A stretch of DNA of 61,914 nt, counting the filler. It is 7 parts of 7 records of this genome, joined end to end, with 100 filler letters (N's around TTAATTAATTAA, not from the genome) between each part and the next. Parts side by side here need not be neighbours in the genome. Positions count along the whole stretch, not along the records: positions 27,243 to 34,748 come from SRR31147125_55605; 6 more parts are not named here. The stretch is one strand, 5' to 3'. Below, in pieces: positions 27,243 to 34,748 of the stretch (positions are counted from its first letter, which is position 1; every line of letters begins with the position of its first letter). The notes below the pieces were generated by a model, which saw nothing but the letters and a program-made list of their open reading frames with translations, was not told where the DNA came from and searched no databases. Both the position numbers and the translations under genes were made by a program.

Positions 27243-27814
27243 AAAATTTCAGAAATACCCTGAATCAATGCTTCTTCTTTGGTGTTGCCACTACACATGC
27301 CATTACTACCAACTATTACCTGCAGAATACGAAAAGGGAGATATTCTTCTTTGTTTTCAAAGATGTTAAAAAAAGGAACTCCAATAAACGAACAGTTATT
27401 CAGGCAATTTATGTCAGTTATTAATTCTATAAAATTGTTACTAAAATCATTCTTTTTATAATGAATTAATTTTTCGTCAGGATAATATTTGTAACTATTT
27501 GAGTTAGAACCTCCAACTTCAGGACATGATGGATAAAGGGAGATGATAAAATAAGCCAAGTTCTGAAACCTTTCTGCCATTTCTCCCCATGCACTTGCAT
27601 GCGCCCACTCCTTGGAATTCCCTTTCCCATTTGTAGAAAATATTGGCTTATTATTTTCGGGATTTATTAGCTGCAAACTATACGAATAAAATGAAGAGCT
27701 TTGTGGAATCGGAATCTCTTCATATAAAAATCCCAGTTGTTCAAAAATTGCCCTTATTTTATTAACCGTTAATTTTGGGAGAATAGCCTTATATGGTTTT
27801 GTTCGTTTAAGCAC
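27243..27814 (-). CDS. YcaO-family protein (3' truncated)
   Basis: TNGKG...ASAWGEMAER and SNGMCSGNTKEEALIQGISEI ATP-binding motifs. Confidence 0.88.
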
Positions 27815-27832
27815 ACAATTAATTTATTGATT

Positions 27833-29493
27833 TTATTCTGGCATCCTCCAGAATTTTAACTTATGGTCCATGGCTCCCGTTATAAAATAGGAAGCATCTT
27901 CGGAGATACTAATTGAAGTAATTGCTGAATCATGAGCTGAAATTGATTTTATGACTTTAAAAGTTTTTGAATCCCAAATTTTAACTATTCCATCAAAATC
28001 TCCTGAAATAAAATACCTGTTGTTGAGCGATGGTTCCAGTATCGTAACCATATTTTTATGCTTACTTAAAGCCGAAAAAGCCTTGCCTGTTTGCTCGCTC
28101 CACCTGTAAATATTATTCGATTTCGACAAGGCCAATATATACTTATTGTTATAAGACAAACAAATGTCTGTAATAGGAGTTTTAGTGTTTATCGTTTTTA
28201 TACATTGTTTATTTTCAATATCCCATTTTTTTATGGAATTATCCCAGCTACCTGTATATATGGTGCTATATTTAGTATTTATTGCAATGGAAGTTATTGC
28301 TGCTTTGTGCCCAACAAAAGATGATTCTTCTAAATTTTGAGTAAGTAGTACCTTCTCATCCCACCCAGCTGATACTAGGTATTGTTCCTGACAAATAAAA
28401 TCAGTTACTGGGGACAAATGTAGGTGAATATCTCTTTTTGTACCATTATTAAAAATTTGTTTTTGGGTAATACAATCGTCATTACTATAATAAAGGTATT
28501 TATTATTGCATTGAATCTGGTTACAAGATGATTCACATTGCCCAATTATTATTGAATTGTCCGATATAATCCCTGTCAAATGCAGTTGGAAATCATCATC
28601 TATTGAAAATACGCAGAAGTCCTTTATCAACAAACCACTAACGGGTAGAGCTTCTGAAATTAAGTAGCCATCTCTTAAATTTGCTAATTTATTATATAAC
28701 TGCTCTTTTACTCTATTAGCCTTGTTTTTATCATCGCTCAATTTGTATAACAAGAATGCAAAATCATAGGTCGAATTTTGAACAAATTTATCTGCTAATA
28801 AACGATATGCGCCCCCCTCGTTATTTATTGCCTTACAATAAAATTCAAATGCTTTATCATAATTTTCTTTTCCAAAAAGTATTTCAGCAATTTTAATACC
28901 TCCTTCTTCTTTTTTATTAATAAGAGAATAATAGTTAAACGCTTCTTCGTAATCTTCTTTTTTACAAAGTATTTCAGCAATTTTAATACCCCCTTTTTCT
29001 TCTTTGTTAACGAGGGAATAATAAACAAATGCTTCTTTGTAATCTTCGTGTTCAAAAAGTATTTCAGCTATCCTCATTGCGCCAATAAATCGTTTATCGG
29101 ATTTTGAGAAATATTCAAATGCTTCTTCATACTCGTCTTCTTCTATCAAAGCCTCAGCAATTTTAACACCTCCTTCTTCCTTAAAGTTGGCTTCTGTATA
29201 ATACATAAAAGCTTTTTCAAATTCTTCCTCCTTAAACAAAGCCTCTGCAATCTTCTTGCAGCCTTCTGTATAATTGTCAGTATTTTTATACATTTCACCG
29301 GCTTTGTCATATTCAGCGTTATTAAAAAATGCTTCCGCCAGGCAGCTATAACAATATGGTTTGTCGTGCTTTTGTTTCTTGCAAAGTTTTCTCCTGCTGT
29401 AAGTTCATTTTTTAATATCAATTTTTCAACTGTTGTACAAGAACTAATTGCAACTGACAGAACAAATAAAATAAACCAATGTATATTTTTCAT
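27833..29493 (-). CDS. Lipoprotein with 29-aa TPR-like repeats and WD40 propeller (frameshift near 29388)
   Basis: Lipobox ISSC; repeats GGIKIAEILFxxEDYEEAF; GH...WD repeats; one extra A joins ORFs 29146-29493 and 27833-29293. Confidence 0.8.
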
Positions 29494-29643
29494 TTTGATA
29501 TTATTAAATAGGTTAATATTATAAATATTTTGGACTTACTTAAATGAGCTTAAATTCGTTAAACTCAATTTTTCTTTATATTTTTTAGTTAAATTCTTGT
29601 AAGTTTATATTGTTCTATTATTCTTGATTCATCGAAGTTTTAA

Positions 29644-31038
29644 TCAAACCAAATCTATTAATCTGTCCGAGCTTTGGCTTGCTATTATTTGCAAATTATT
29701 TATATCATTTAGCAAATCAATATCCCTATTTTCTATTTCCAAATCATCTAATAACGAAAATAGAGAGATAAGCCTTGTTTGTTTACAAAAAGCGTCGTAG
29801 CTAAGCGAACTTCCCGGGAAAGAGGTACCAACATGGCATCCGCCTGAACACGACCATTTACAGAAACACTTCTCGCAACGAGGCTTGTCTTCCACGATAT
29901 TCCTTATCCGTTCAATATTTTTGTGGTTCAAAATCACTCCATCTGTTGTATTTATCATGCCAAATTCAAGATCTAAGCCAACTTCCTGCCACTTTTCCTG
30001 TAAAAGGTAACAGTTGGATATTCTTCCATCGGGTGAAACAATCGCCGTATCTTTACCAACCGGACAAGAAGTAACCTGTGGACTTGCTGAAATATCGGAA
30101 GCATATACTATTTCAATACCATAACTACGGGCTATTTTTCTTGATTTTTGAAATTGAACAGCAAATTCAATTGGATTAGGAGCAAACAGACCATTTCTTT
30201 TTGTAATCTCCGACTCGCTCAATATTTCAAAATTTAAAACAGATAATCTGAAATTCTGGCAAAACCAATGGGTGAGTTCTTTCATTCTCCCAATATTTAA
30301 TTGACTAACGCAACATCTAATACACAACTCTGCATTTGATTCTCCAATAATTTTTGCAGTTCTGAAAACATTATCAAAACTGCTTTTCCCGCCTTTTAGT
30401 GGGCGATGCGTATCTTGTATATCACGGAATCCGTCGAAAGAAAGTATCACCTTATTAAAATAATAGCCCAGCCACTTTGCTCGGTTTTCGATGTATTGCC
30501 CATTGGTTGAGATTTCGAAATATGGAAACAACTTGTGTTTTGTCGCGATTAGTCGTGCTCTGTGTACTGCAACCTCAATTAGATCGAAAGCAACCATGGG
30601 CTCACCGCCAAAAAAGTGTATTTCTAATATTTCTCGTTTTTGTTCAAGCATAAGTTTTGAGTACCAATTAACTGTTTCAATTGCCAAATCATATGTCATG
30701 GTAACGTTCTCAAATCTACCTGCACCAAAATCGCAATAATTACAAGCGCCGTTGCAGCCTCTTGTGGGTAGCAGTCCTAAAAATTCGGGATTAAAGGGTC
30801 CGGTTTTTCTCAATATTATATCTGTAGGTGTTTGGATAATTTCTTTTGCCAGTTCAGCTAATTGCGAACCGGGTGTAGACTTCCCCTTCTCAGCTAGTTT
30901 TATTTGTTTTTTAAGTTCAACCGCTCCTGAATAATTAAGCAAAGCAGACATTTCATTTAAAGGAGAGTAAACCAGTAAATCATCGTTTACAGGCAAACAA
31001 AATATATTTTCAATACTGTTTTTATTTGAGGTCTTCAT
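29644..31038 (-). CDS. Radical SAM/SPASM peptide-maturase-like enzyme B
   Basis: CNGACNYC, FFGGEP, SPASM CPVG...NC...CEKCFCKWSCSGGC; TAATG-coupled to the upstream rSAM. Confidence 0.9.
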   Translation of the reverse strand: MKTSNKNSIENIFCLPVNDDLLVYSPLNEMSALLNYSGAVELKKQIKLAEKGKSTPGSQLAELAKEIIQTPTDIILRKTGPFNPEFLGLLPTRGCNGACNYCDFGAGRFENVTMTYDLAIETVNWYSKLMLEQKREILEIHFFGGEPMVAFDLIEVAVHRARLIATKHKLFPYFEISTNGQYIENRAKWLGYYFNKVILSFDGFRDIQDTHRPLKGGKSSFDNVFRTAKIIGESNAELCIRCCVSQLNIGRMKELTHWFCQNFRLSVLNFEILSESEITKRNGLFAPNPIEFAVQFQKSRKIARSYGIEIVYASDISASPQVTSCPVGKDTAIVSPDGRISNCYLLQEKWQEVGLDLEFGMINTTDGVILNHKNIERIRNIVEDKPRCEKCFCKWSCSGGCHVGTSFPGSSLSYDAFCKQTRLISLFSLLDDLEIENRDIDLLNDINNLQIIASQSSDRLIDLV

Positions 31039-33832: not shown

Positions 33833-34568
33833 GTCGTAGTTTCTTTAATGCGATAAAACACATTCTTAATAATAAAAATCCGTCTTTTAAAGGAGCAATA
33901 TTTGATTTACCATATGAGCGTTTGTAATAACTAACGGGCAATGAGGTAATTGAGAGACCCAAACTATAAGCGCTAAACAAAAGTTCAAAATCTCCGAATG
34001 GATCTATATTTCTAAAAAACGAGTTTGCCTCAATTTTTAAGTAGTCCGCTTTTAATAAAACTTTTGTACCACACAAAGTGTCGCCGATTTTTTGTTTTAA
34101 TAACCAGCTACATACTACACTAAAAAATTTGTTGCCAATTAAGTTAAGTGTAGGCATAGTTCTTTTTCTACCCTGGTTTATAAGCCTGCAACCATTTATA
34201 AAACAGTTTTGATTATTACATAACGTAGTATAAAATAACGGCAATTCTTCCGGTGCTACAGTTAAATCAGCATCAAGAATCATTAATACCTCATTACTTG
34301 CAGCAGCAAATCCCATCTTTACCGCATTGGCCTTACCTGCTTCTGTTTGTTTTAATGCTTTAATGTTAAATTTCGTATTACAAAGTTGCTTCACTCTCAA
34401 TATTTCATCCCAGGTCTTGTCCTTTGAGCCTCCTTCAACAAATATTATTTCAAGATTTTTACCAAAAGAAGGCATTCTCTGAATACATTTTTTAATAGTT
34501 CCCTGCTCATTTTTTGCAGGTATTATTACTGATACCGAATAATCTTTTATGAAATTATTATTGGACAT
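33816..34568 (-). CDS. GT2 glycosyltransferase (DPM1/GtrB-like)
   Basis: VIIPAKNE, ILDADL, DTLCGTK. Confidence 0.88.
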   Translation of the reverse strand: MSNNNFIKDYSVSVIIPAKNEQGTIKKCIQRMPSFGKNLEIIFVEGGSKDKTWDEILRVKQLCNTKFNIKALKQTEAGKANAVKMGFAAASNEVLMILDADLTVAPEELPLFYTTLCNNQNCFINGCRLINQGRKRTMPTLNLIGNKFFSVVCSWLLKQKIGDTLCGTKVLLKADYLKIEANSFFRNIDPFGDFELLFSAYSLGLSITSLPVSYYKRSYGKSNIAPLKDGFLLLRMCFIALKKLRLGYKI

Positions 34569-34580
34569 GCTAATGAATCA

Positions 34581-34600
34581 TTAATTTGGATACCAGTAAG
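34581..34600. repeat. Direct repeat copy 2 (YWYxN-stop)
   Basis: ttaatttggataccagtaag. Confidence 0.75.
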
Positions 34601-34748
34601 TACCACCACTTGAGTGGGAGTCACATGAACATACCGAATTACAGCTACAAACCTCATTGCATCTACAGGATTCAACTGAATTACATTCACAAATATTTCC
34701 AGATTCGTTAGACATTACTGTATCACAGGTACAAACGGAGTTACATTG
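34581..34748 (-). CDS. Cys-rich repeat peptide or protein C-terminus (5' truncated; absent from the ORF track)
   Basis: Manual translation: QCNSVCTCDTVMSNESGNICECNSVESCRCNEVCSCNSVCSCDSHSSGGTYWYPN*; 11 Cys in 55 aa. Confidence 0.8.
   Translation of the reverse strand, partial: QCNSVCTCDTVMSNESGNICECNSVESCRCNEVCSCNSVCSCDSHSSGGTYWYPN

Follow-up and report, generated by a model that had tools for sequence, protein, structure and literature searches.

A candidate operon for maturing exported proteins with a Cys-repeat/YWYPN tail, combining radical SAM, YcaO, and glycosyltransferase genes

The DNA analyzed here, referred to below as the window, is a stretch of 61,914 nucleotides (positions 1-61914) composed of seven contigs joined by N44-TTAATTAATTAA-N44 spacers, and our subject is a gene cluster that fills exactly one of these contigs (positions 27243-34748; 7506 bp; GC content 0.335). 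Its genes encode the end of a Cys-repeat protein terminating in YWYPN, two glycosyltransferases (a GT2 and a GT-C enzyme), two radical S-adenosylmethionine (rSAM) enzymes designated rSAM A and rSAM B, a WD40 protein, and a YcaO-domain protein. We interpret the contig as a fragment of a maturation operon for exported proteins that carry a Cys-repeat/YWYPN tail, in which the tail would be stapled by a protein-scale pathway resembling those for peptides that are made ribosomally and modified post-translationally (RiPPs), and we assign this interpretation a probability of roughly 0.65. By sequence comparison, the tail proved to be a C-terminal protein module whose genes lie beside the rSAM A and rSAM B families and, across five whole genomes, nowhere else. 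A first-pass annotation of the window had described a candidate RiPP-like system of this composition; its observation is confirmed by our analysis, and, as far as comparative genomics goes, its interpretation is supported.

The tail module and its association with radical SAM families

The window tail is composed of the units CTCDTV, CECNSV, CRCNEV, CSCNSV, and CSCDSH followed by the C-terminus GGTYWYPN. The repeat and its YWYPN end had both been recognized in the first-pass annotation, but they do not belong to a closed 44-codon gene, as all 11 codons between the presumed ATG at 34715 and the contig edge are open and the repeat persists through them (QCNSVCTCDTV). The Cys-rich open reading frame (ORF) therefore represents the 3' portion of a gene that extends further. 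The tail matched no Pfam or NCBIfam model, and a word-indexed search with its 55 residues against proteins of 30-97 residues was likewise without a match. It is 69% and 63% identical to two tails encoded by a Bacteroidales locus (L001) and was aligned with 39 other tails. These came from a collection of 160 loci, 80 from species-representative genomes and 80 from metagenomes, that was gathered using rSAM A alignments as bait; a scan of genome contigs with the single rSAM A protein had found no relative. The collection includes near-duplicates and relatives, such that the counts presented below do not represent independent events. A six-frame analysis using the tail end pattern [H/T/S/G]YW[Y/H/R]P[N/D...] or YYYPN yielded 67 ORFs with the terminal motif, which correspond to 60 distinct tails. 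As 54 of the 60 terminate ORFs of at least 130 residues, most of them (36/54) WD40-type propellers and the remainder shorter proteins without a Pfam match, the protein tail is preferred among the two kinds of product that had been suggested at first pass, a peptide or a protein tail.

Among 309 C-x-C units in these tails, position 2 is T or S in 66%, position 4 is D in 39%, N in 28%, and V in 24%, and position 6 is V or I in 63%. With the hexads arranged in succession, both C-x-x-[N/D] and [N/D]-x-x-C spacings are created. The opposite ends of the tail proteins are equally conserved, consisting of an acidic stretch, a PE[IV][YF] motif, and, 10-20 residues further on, a twin-arginine motif with a hydrophobic region, which often finishes in a lipobox (for instance, L[AST]GC). 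Most of the proteins begin in this twin-arginine translocation (Tat)-type manner, PE[IV]Y...RRxF. The combined PE[IV][YF] and RR pattern was found in just 54 of the 33,514 ORFs in the loci, 45 of which have the terminal motif, 2 have another Cys tail, and 4 run off the contig. Viewed from the other direction, 45 of the 56 complete motif ORFs contain the strict PE[IV][YF]/twin-arginine pattern, while others have RK in place of RR. When modeled alone with AlphaFold2 (AF2), the tail is predicted to be disordered, with a predicted local distance difference test score (pLDDT) of 43 and without secondary structure, as would be expected of a core awaiting modification; the model therefore offers no usable geometry.

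A few ORFs depart from the usual form of the tail proteins. A WD40 protein encoded beside rSAM A in L002 (L002:9707-10903) has a PEIY/RR N-terminus and an HYWRPN end, but the Cys repeats are replaced by a Gly run and a single Cys, which shows that the ladder need not accompany the end motif. The 60-residue ORF L009:15377-15556, which ends in HYWHPN, may be a true small precursor. A 35-residue ORF with the end motif (L058:9617-9721) looks like part of a frameshifted larger gene, as it is preceded by a tail-less ORF with the leader and RR motifs (L058:8893-9534). We also considered YWYPN as a sorting signal of the sortase or PEP-CTERM type, which was rejected because the motif is the very C-terminus and no hydrophobic segment follows it.

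The terminal motif was present in 43 of 67 loci having an A-type rSAM. In 21 of the 24 A-type loci that lack it, less than 2.3 kb of contig is available upstream of rSAM A, where the tail gene is usually found; the other three are L006, L008, and L092. Among the 49 loci with weak rSAM matches, the motif was found in two, L058 and L159; both contain pieces of rSAM A, and they encode rSAM B and an rSAM B-like protein (36% identity, under the 150-bit bar), respectively. Genome-wide, all eight YWYPN-stop sites in five whole genomes (2.9-8.4 Mb) are located inside rSAM loci, compared to zero sites for a reversed-pattern control. Thus, the rSAM homologues and the Cys-rich ORF, which the first-pass annotation had linked as enzymes and substrate, do co-occur. 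A gene profile restricted to loci no shorter than 15 kb (n = 37) further separated the 17 with the motif from the 20 without it: rSAM B is encoded by 17/17 of the former and 0/20 of the latter, while the corresponding values are 15/17 and 0/20 for a family designated rSAM E, 12/17 and 0/20 for rSAM D, and 13/17 and 1/20 for rSAM A. A C-type paralogue of rSAM A has the reverse distribution (4/17 and 19/20). Relatedness among the loci makes all of these values larger than independent sampling would.

Several additional features of these loci were apparent. A sister system is present in L011-L024, L028, L124, L131, L139, and L140, in which one C-type rSAM gene is found beside genes for Tat-signal WD40 proteins. 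Its Cys tails have the lead-in ...TYTLPCGSPIPxGAxCxCNCV... and end in C-x-C-[VI]-P-V-x or CSCQAEPY; neither YWYPN nor rSAM B was found in these loci. In three YcaO-bearing metagenome loci (L086, L092, and L093), the tail gene has a gene for an rSAM A paralogue on each side; one paralogue is 38% and the other 62% identical to the window enzyme. A conserved protein of about 315 residues is encoded after rSAM B (e.g. L001:12784-13728 and L082:12753-13700) in 6 of the 17 loci that have the motif and are 15 kb or longer. For the 314-residue protein encoded in L001/L082, the name "U32-like" was only a guess and was dropped, as the protein has no Pfam or NCBIfam match. The small accessory proteins likewise matched no Pfam or NCBIfam model.

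Operon enzymes and a proposed maturation pathway

The radical SAM motif CX3CX2C comprises C92/C96/C99 in rSAM A, all three kept in each of up to 82 sequences, and C97/C101/C104 in rSAM B, where C101 and C104 are present in 22/22 sequences and C97 in at least 90%; the PF04055 scores are 46.6 and 52.9 bits, respectively. Both enzymes also have the full SPASM pattern (C-x12-G-x4-C ... CX2CX5CX3C ... C), which is formed by C319, G332, C337, C383, C386, C392, C396, and C412 in rSAM A and by C327, G340, C345, C390, C393, C399, C403, and C420 in rSAM B. These positions are invariant across the homologues (up to 82 for A and 22 for B), except for G332 of rSAM A, which is invariant in A2 only. The Pfam SPASM model scores just below its cut-off of 21.5 (20.6 for A and 19.0 for B). 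The best NCBIfam match of both enzymes is PapB (NF047865; 122.8 bits for A and 104.7 for B vs. a cut-off of 340), and other curated matches include the SCIFF maturase ScfB (TIGR03974; 80.8 and 94.8 vs. 425), the CrpC family (TIGR04463; 62.9 and 59.9 vs. 525), and QhpD (TIGR03906; 64.8 and 58.7 vs. 453). CcpM and CefB, which like PapB and ScfB are thioether-forming peptide maturases, are also among the best curated matches, and each of these matches is far below its cut-off.

Structural comparisons similarly place rSAM A near thioether-forming enzymes. Its profile matches CteB (5WGG) among solved structures with an E value of 1.8e-34, and its AF2 model (pLDDT 90.7) has its best fold match in the same protein (5WHY/5WGG; template modeling score 0.69-0.73 over 456-470 columns), which covers nearly the whole length. 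The N-terminal strands (residues 7-11, 14-19, and 24-28) and helices (residues 30-40 and 52-59) of the model form a beta3-helix domain that is a candidate RiPP recognition element (RRE). A complex prediction of rSAM A with the tail scored 0.00 in two runs without controls and is evidence neither way. Both families are large: the 1304 word-indexed relatives of rSAM A are at most named "radical SAM protein", and rSAM B has 236 cluster representatives at E<=1e-30. An rSAM A that is 80% identical to that of the window (P0001) is encoded on a 21-kb contig, and the nearest named relative is from a Bacteroidales metagenome-assembled genome (59%). In a FastTree phylogeny, the A (55 rows) and B (31 rows) enzymes form separate, well-supported clades, and the window enzymes fall into clades of eight (A) and four (B) rows, both of which also include L082 and L001.

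The YcaO fragment is 47% identical over its length to the YcaO protein encoded within the L001 operon, which scores 156 bits with PF02624 and 92.1 bits with TIGR00702 (vs. 75.65). Neither protein approaches the cut-off of the E. coli YcaO (EcYcaO) equivalog NF040716, which is associated with S12/uL16 (cut-off 700; the fragment reaches 67.9 bits and the complete L001 protein 166.2), or that of the TOMM cyclodehydratase TIGR03604 (16.7 and 50.7 vs. 219), and the queries used revealed no E1-like/ocin-ThiF partner in the loci. Among solved structures, the nearest one is that of E. coli YcaO (4Q84; 1.5e-25), with the stretches GKG…ASA.GE..ER and SNGM.GNT.EA..QG.SE both kept. The isoelectric points (pI) of the cluster YcaOs are 4.9-7.0 vs. 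4.4 for EcYcaO (PMC13063428). The gene is embedded between rSAM genes in five related loci (L001, L086, L092, L093, and L103) with varying gene orders, which supports the earlier view of YcaO as a part of the system.

The GT2 enzyme resembles the polyprenyl-phosphate sugar synthases (AglJ, dolichyl-P-hexose, and ArnC types), although all matches are below cut-off (AglJ, 82 vs. 325), and the nearest ESM Atlas clusters of the GT-C enzyme are of the ArnT/PMT_2 type (score 0.98). The loci closest to the window are L081/L082, which are near-identical to one another, and the distinct L083, with rSAM A proteins that are 63-65% identical to that of the window. Within these loci, GT2 (49-51% identical to the window protein) and GT-C (43-47% identical in L082/L083) are interleaved with rSAM D and three tail genes in a single 16-kb same-strand operon, and this arrangement lends support to the glycosylation that had been put forward as a possibility at first pass. 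At its N-terminus, the L082 GT2 (L082:538-1941) carries a fused class I methyltransferase domain that the window GT2 lacks. YcaO and GT2/GT-C were found together in the window only, with 0 of the 67 further A-type loci in the sample having both. The window WD40 protein lacks a Cys tail as well as a Tat motif; its gene is 18 bp from ycaO, and it is 28-31% identical to the tail-bearing WD40 proteins of L081-L083 and L086.

Based upon these comparisons, we propose that the RRE-bearing rSAM/SPASM enzymes bind the precursor in the cytoplasm, with PE[IV]Y, located in the n-region of the Tat signal, as the strongest candidate for a leader, and that they would staple the unfolded tail by means of thioethers in which the sulfur of Cys is joined to a carbon in the side chain of the conserved Asn/Asp (ranthionine type). 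The A-type enzyme most likely handles the Cys repeats, as repeats are common to the YWYPN and sister systems and point to a role of the A/C-type enzymes upon them. Conversely, rSAM B most likely acts at or through the YWYPN end, and its strict tracking of the motif suggests that it belongs, together with rSAM D/E/F, to the YWYPN version of the system. As an optional addition, the E. coli-type YcaO would activate a backbone amide of the same protein, with a thioamide as the most likely product and an azoline as a possible one. The finished protein would be exported by the Tat route, and in the clade of the window, the GT2 enzyme (of the polyprenyl-phosphate sugar synthase type) and GT-C may then glycosylate it periplasmically, again as an optional addition. 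A more ambitious and tentative version, which we regard as possible but hardly probable, would be a three-chemistry, protein-scale RiPP having a leader in the Tat n-region, a thioether ladder, a YcaO-derived thioamide/azoline, an rSAM B-modified YWYPN, and external glycosylation. In this scheme, RRE binding would both recruit the enzymes and delay export until the tail is finished, and the product would be a protease-proof or redox-active appendage on the surface WD40 propellers of anaerobes.

Gene layout and condition of the window copy

The contig carries all of the ORFs listed in the first-pass annotation, in the order Cys-rich ORF, GT2, GT-C, rSAM A, rSAM B, WD40, and YcaO and with matching families (Table 1). 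Intergenic gaps are 7-18 nt or are replaced by overlaps, the one exception being 150 nt before the lipoprotein ORF. The GT-C gene overlaps the GT2 gene by 17 nt, and the coupling described for the two rSAM genes is evident at their junction, GAATGCTAATGAAG, where they overlap.

Table 1. Features of the cluster contig
Feature	Position	Strand	Evidence or remark
Cys-repeat substrate gene, 3' end (55 codons + stop)	34581..34748	-	Five C-x-C units, end GGTYWYPN
GT2 glycosyltransferase, 250 aa	33816..34568	-	PF00535, 83.2 bits vs. 23.3
GT-C (ArnT/PMT_2-like) membrane glycosyltransferase, N-terminal 387 codons	32669..33832	-	PMT_2 (PF13231), 25.9 bits vs. 26.1, on the frameshifted gene; ESM Atlas
GT-C C-terminal part, other frame	32392..32604	-	tblastn with L082/L083 homologues
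rSAM A, candidate RRE + radical SAM + SPASM, 448 aa	31038..32384	-	Motifs, PapB-type match, AF2 model
rSAM B, second radical SAM/SPASM, putatively RRE-type, 466 aa	29644..31044	-	Conserved Cys pattern, PapB-type match
Sec-type lipoprotein signal ORF (…LSVAISSC)	29146..29493	-	Three-frame translation; without Pfam/NCBIfam match
Helical-repeat + WD40 beta-propeller ORF, 486 aa	27833..29293	-	PF00400, 91 bits
YcaO-domain protein, first 190 codons, cut by contig end	27243..27814	-	PF02624, 51.8 bits vs. 25.7

Two genes differ from their earlier description. GT-C is present as listed, but it is split by a frameshift rather than being a single intact gene. In tblastn comparisons, homologue residues 25-338 align in the frame 32669-33832, while residues 412-486 of the L082/L083 GT-C proteins align in ORF 32392-32604 at 54-62% identity, which places the last ~75-100 residues of the protein in the latter ORF. 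The frameshift lies somewhere between about 32600 and 32830. Homopolymer runs occur at 32767 (A7), 32848 (T7), and 32856 (A7), and the shift may reflect either true decay of the gene or an error in sequencing a homopolymer. Similarly, both elements of the repeat/WD40 lipoprotein gene were found, but in different frames, with the signal ORF and the repeat/WD40 body overlapping by about 150 nt. The signal ORF is probably the frameshifted N-terminus of the WD40 gene. The copy of the system in the window is incomplete and possibly damaged. No further parts of the cluster were found in the rest of the window by tblastn using all of the cluster proteins as queries. Among sequencing runs, none from RNA and one from DNA were listed as containing the contig; the contigs of this DNA run, which may be the source, cover 7 of 30 bins, and one of them extends about 1 kb beyond the ycaO end.

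The contigs of the window range in GC content from 0.30 to 0.55. If the window is a bin, its organisms may be mixed and the other contigs are then uninformative as to the host of the cluster. A separate contig (20661-27142), with a GC content of 0.30 that is close to that of the rSAM contig, encodes a complete type V-A CRISPR adaptation/effector set on the plus strand (21552-27026), consisting of Cas12a/Cpf1 (1223 aa; RuvC_1, NUC, REC1, REC2, and PI domains), Cas4, Cas1, and Cas2.

Alternative explanations, implications, and comparison with known systems

A number of observations weigh against our interpretation of the contig as part of a tail-stapling operon. The gene associations were established by comparison, whereas the thioether, thioamide, and glycosylation steps are drawn by analogy, and the dependence among loci baited with rSAM A applies to all of the counts. 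Neither rSAM reaches a curated cut-off, and the reaction could therefore be of another type; DynA (99 bits) and the cyclophane formers YhhB, GrrM/OscB, and AmcB are among the other matches of rSAM A. The 24% of C-x-C units with Val at position 4 lack the Asn/Asp there, and the motif is accompanied by a C-type rather than an A-type enzyme in L010, L021, L035, and L141. In the window itself, the N-terminus of the substrate is beyond the contig edge, which places both its Tat/leader part and its tail-carrying domain out of reach, and the presence of two frameshifted genes (GT-C and the WD40 lipoprotein) suggests that this copy may be decaying or misassembled. Lastly, of the 67 loci with an A-type rSAM, only 5 include YcaO and 3 include GT-C, and two of these 3 are near-identical. 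As YcaO and GT2/GT-C occur inside the operon only in some clades, they are accessories rather than core components and either could serve another purpose.

This last point leads to the view that YcaO and GT2/GT-C are bystanders engaged in ribosomal protein thioamidation and in envelope glycolipid or lipid A modification, respectively. ArnC/ArnT-type pairs do normally modify lipids, the closest relative of the YcaO is the ribosome-modifying EcYcaO, the window GT-C is frameshifted, and both YcaO (5/67) and GT-C (3/67) are infrequent. However, the genes in question always have rSAM or tail genes on both sides, with a shared strand, short gaps, and varying orders, and the L001 YcaO is far below the EcYcaO equivalog cut-off. 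In addition, the cluster YcaOs are less acidic than EcYcaO, and non-acidic members of the group are stated to occur in RiPP contexts (PMC13063428). We consider a bystander role doubtful. A different proposal concerns the chemistry, as at least one of the rSAM enzymes might not form thioethers and could instead create C-C/ether cross-links on the YWYPN aromatics (as in darobactin/dynobactin or three-residue cyclophanes) or a Trp/Cys redox cofactor, for which the gamma subunit of quinohemoprotein amine dehydrogenase (QHNDH) offers an analogue, leaving the Cys repeats mainly as metal ligands. DynA is the second-best curated match of rSAM A, there is almost no variation at the Y, W, and P of the end motif in contrast to the variable repeats, and rSAM B together with usually two or three further rSAMs was found only with the motif. 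Conversely, thioether enzymes of the PapB, SCIFF, and CteB types are the best matches by both sequence and fold, QhpD scores are a small fraction of the cut-off, and the motif statistics are partly circular, given that the motif was used to pick the ORFs. Moreover, the conserved Asn/Asp three residues from a Cys agrees with the spacing of known thioether acceptors (PMC9389541). This proposal is therefore unlikely in our estimation.

The nature of the substrate has likewise been weighed against two other options. Were it a small secreted RiPP of about 44-60 residues, similar to a bacteriocin-like ranthipeptide, then the WD40 protein would be an unrelated neighbor. The in-frame ATG at 34715 would yield 44 residues and short forms such as the L009 ORF do exist among the relatives, but the frame and repeat extend past this ATG, the great majority of distinct tails are found on long ORFs, the L058 short ORF is probably derived from a frameshifted larger gene, and searches with Pfam and NCBIfam models revealed no peptidase-containing ABC transporter (PCAT) or leader protease on the contig. 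Consequently, we view a small peptide product as quite improbable. It would be even more surprising for the tail to be an unmodified metal- or iron-sulfur-binding domain similar to metallothionein with rSAM enzymes that act elsewhere, which we regard as highly improbable. C-x-C spacing is typical of metal-thiolate proteins, and the CrpA cluster has been linked to growth on pyrite (PMC13692751). Nevertheless, the tail is exclusively co-located with peptide-maturase rSAMs, putatively of the RRE type, and no other candidate substrate recurs in the loci. Stapling of the tail on an exported protein remains our preferred interpretation.

To our knowledge, the enzymatic thioether stapling of whole proteins has been shown in very few cases, namely the QHNDH gamma subunit and CrpA (2026). 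The present system, which is apparently undescribed yet widespread in bacteria, would add a whole-protein stapling family spanning at least nine phylum-level groups as judged by the taxa in record titles (Bacteroidota, Pseudomonadota, Zhuqueibacterota, Chloroflexota, Actinomycetota, Acidobacteriota, Myxococcota, UASB270, and, for the sister system, Planctomycetota/Verrucomicrobia). The YWYPN-stop signature is a simple means to locate substrates genome-wide, and the reactions of four to six unassigned radical SAM families could be read on a single substrate. In addition, the system connects the recognition of RiPP leaders with the control of Tat export in a way that can be tested, and E. coli-type YcaO enzymes would gain a second setting in which they modify proteins. 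The contribution of the window is a variant with both YcaO and GT2/GT-C.

The first-pass annotation could not assign this combination of enzymes to a described class, and our results agree: both rSAM enzymes score below every NCBIfam cut-off, no model in Pfam or NCBIfam matches the tail, and full-text literature searches (open-access PMC and bioRxiv) found no description of the system. The closest known counterparts of the rSAM enzymes are CteB (5WGG/5WHY), ScfB, and PapB (freyrasin), which similarly combine a radical SAM domain with a seven-Cys SPASM domain, carry an RRE where rSAM A has a candidate one, and act upon Cys-rich substrates with Asp/Asn nearby. Unlike these enzymes, those of the present loci score far below the family cut-offs (340 and 425) and number from two to six different rSAMs per operon, and in place of a leader-core peptide, the substrate is the tail of a Tat-signal protein of 150-570 residues with an invariant YWYPN end; SCIFF, for example, has a six-Cys precursor as opposed to a hexad-repeat tail. 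Among proteins that become periplasmic, the rSAM/SPASM enzyme QhpD makes several Cys-Asp/Glu thioethers in QhpC, a small Cys/Trp-containing polypeptide. The contig differs from that system in having only a distant match to TIGR03906 (59-65 bits vs. 453) and in encoding no dehydrogenase subunits or homologues of QhpE/F/G. Polyprenyl-phosphate sugar synthases paired with GT-C enzymes (Ppm1/Pmt, ArnC/ArnT, and AglJ) are the usual logic for the glycosylation of extracytoplasmic targets. The translational coupling of GT2 to a PMT_2/ArnT-like GT-C resembles these pairs, although no curated cut-off is reached by the window proteins and its GT-C is frameshifted.

NxxcB forms a Cys-Asn beta-thioether at N-x-x-C spacing, while PapB and CteB form beta and gamma thioethers in similar contexts (PMC9389541). 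Every [N/D]-x-V-C hexad junction of the tails has the spacing of NxxcB/NxxcA, a streptococcal RaS-RiPP, and is near that of PapB, whereas NxxcA is a small peptide with one bridge (PMC9389541); the likeness is one of spacing, without a family-level sequence match. Bacteroidales RiPP clusters encoding both rSAM and YcaO (PMC10352776) also feature an rSAM/SPASM enzyme, there with an RRE, co-occurring with YcaO, but those clusters have GG-leader peptides and PCAT exporters, and the terms WD40, Cys-rich, and twin-arginine do not occur in that paper. EcYcaO was described in 2026 as thioamidating the whole protein uL16 without a partner (PMC13063428). It is the nearest characterized relative of the cluster YcaO and a stand-alone modifier of a whole protein, whereas the cluster YcaO is less acidic, is embedded among rSAM genes, and in its L001 version scores 166 bits vs. 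700. The closest parallel on the scale of a whole protein is CrpC/CrpA of Methanococcus voltae, in which an RRE-bearing SPASM rSAM installs ranthionine bridges on a Cys-repeat protein (PMC13692751). Like the tail proteins, CrpA has its Cys residues in the C-terminal part, and its N-terminus acts in the manner of a leader, as that of the tail proteins may (PMC13692751). CrpA has 17-residue repeats with C-x-x-Q/D and a single rSAM, whereas the system examined here has hexads, several rSAM enzymes, Tat/lipoprotein signals, WD40 propellers, YcaO, and glycosyltransferases.

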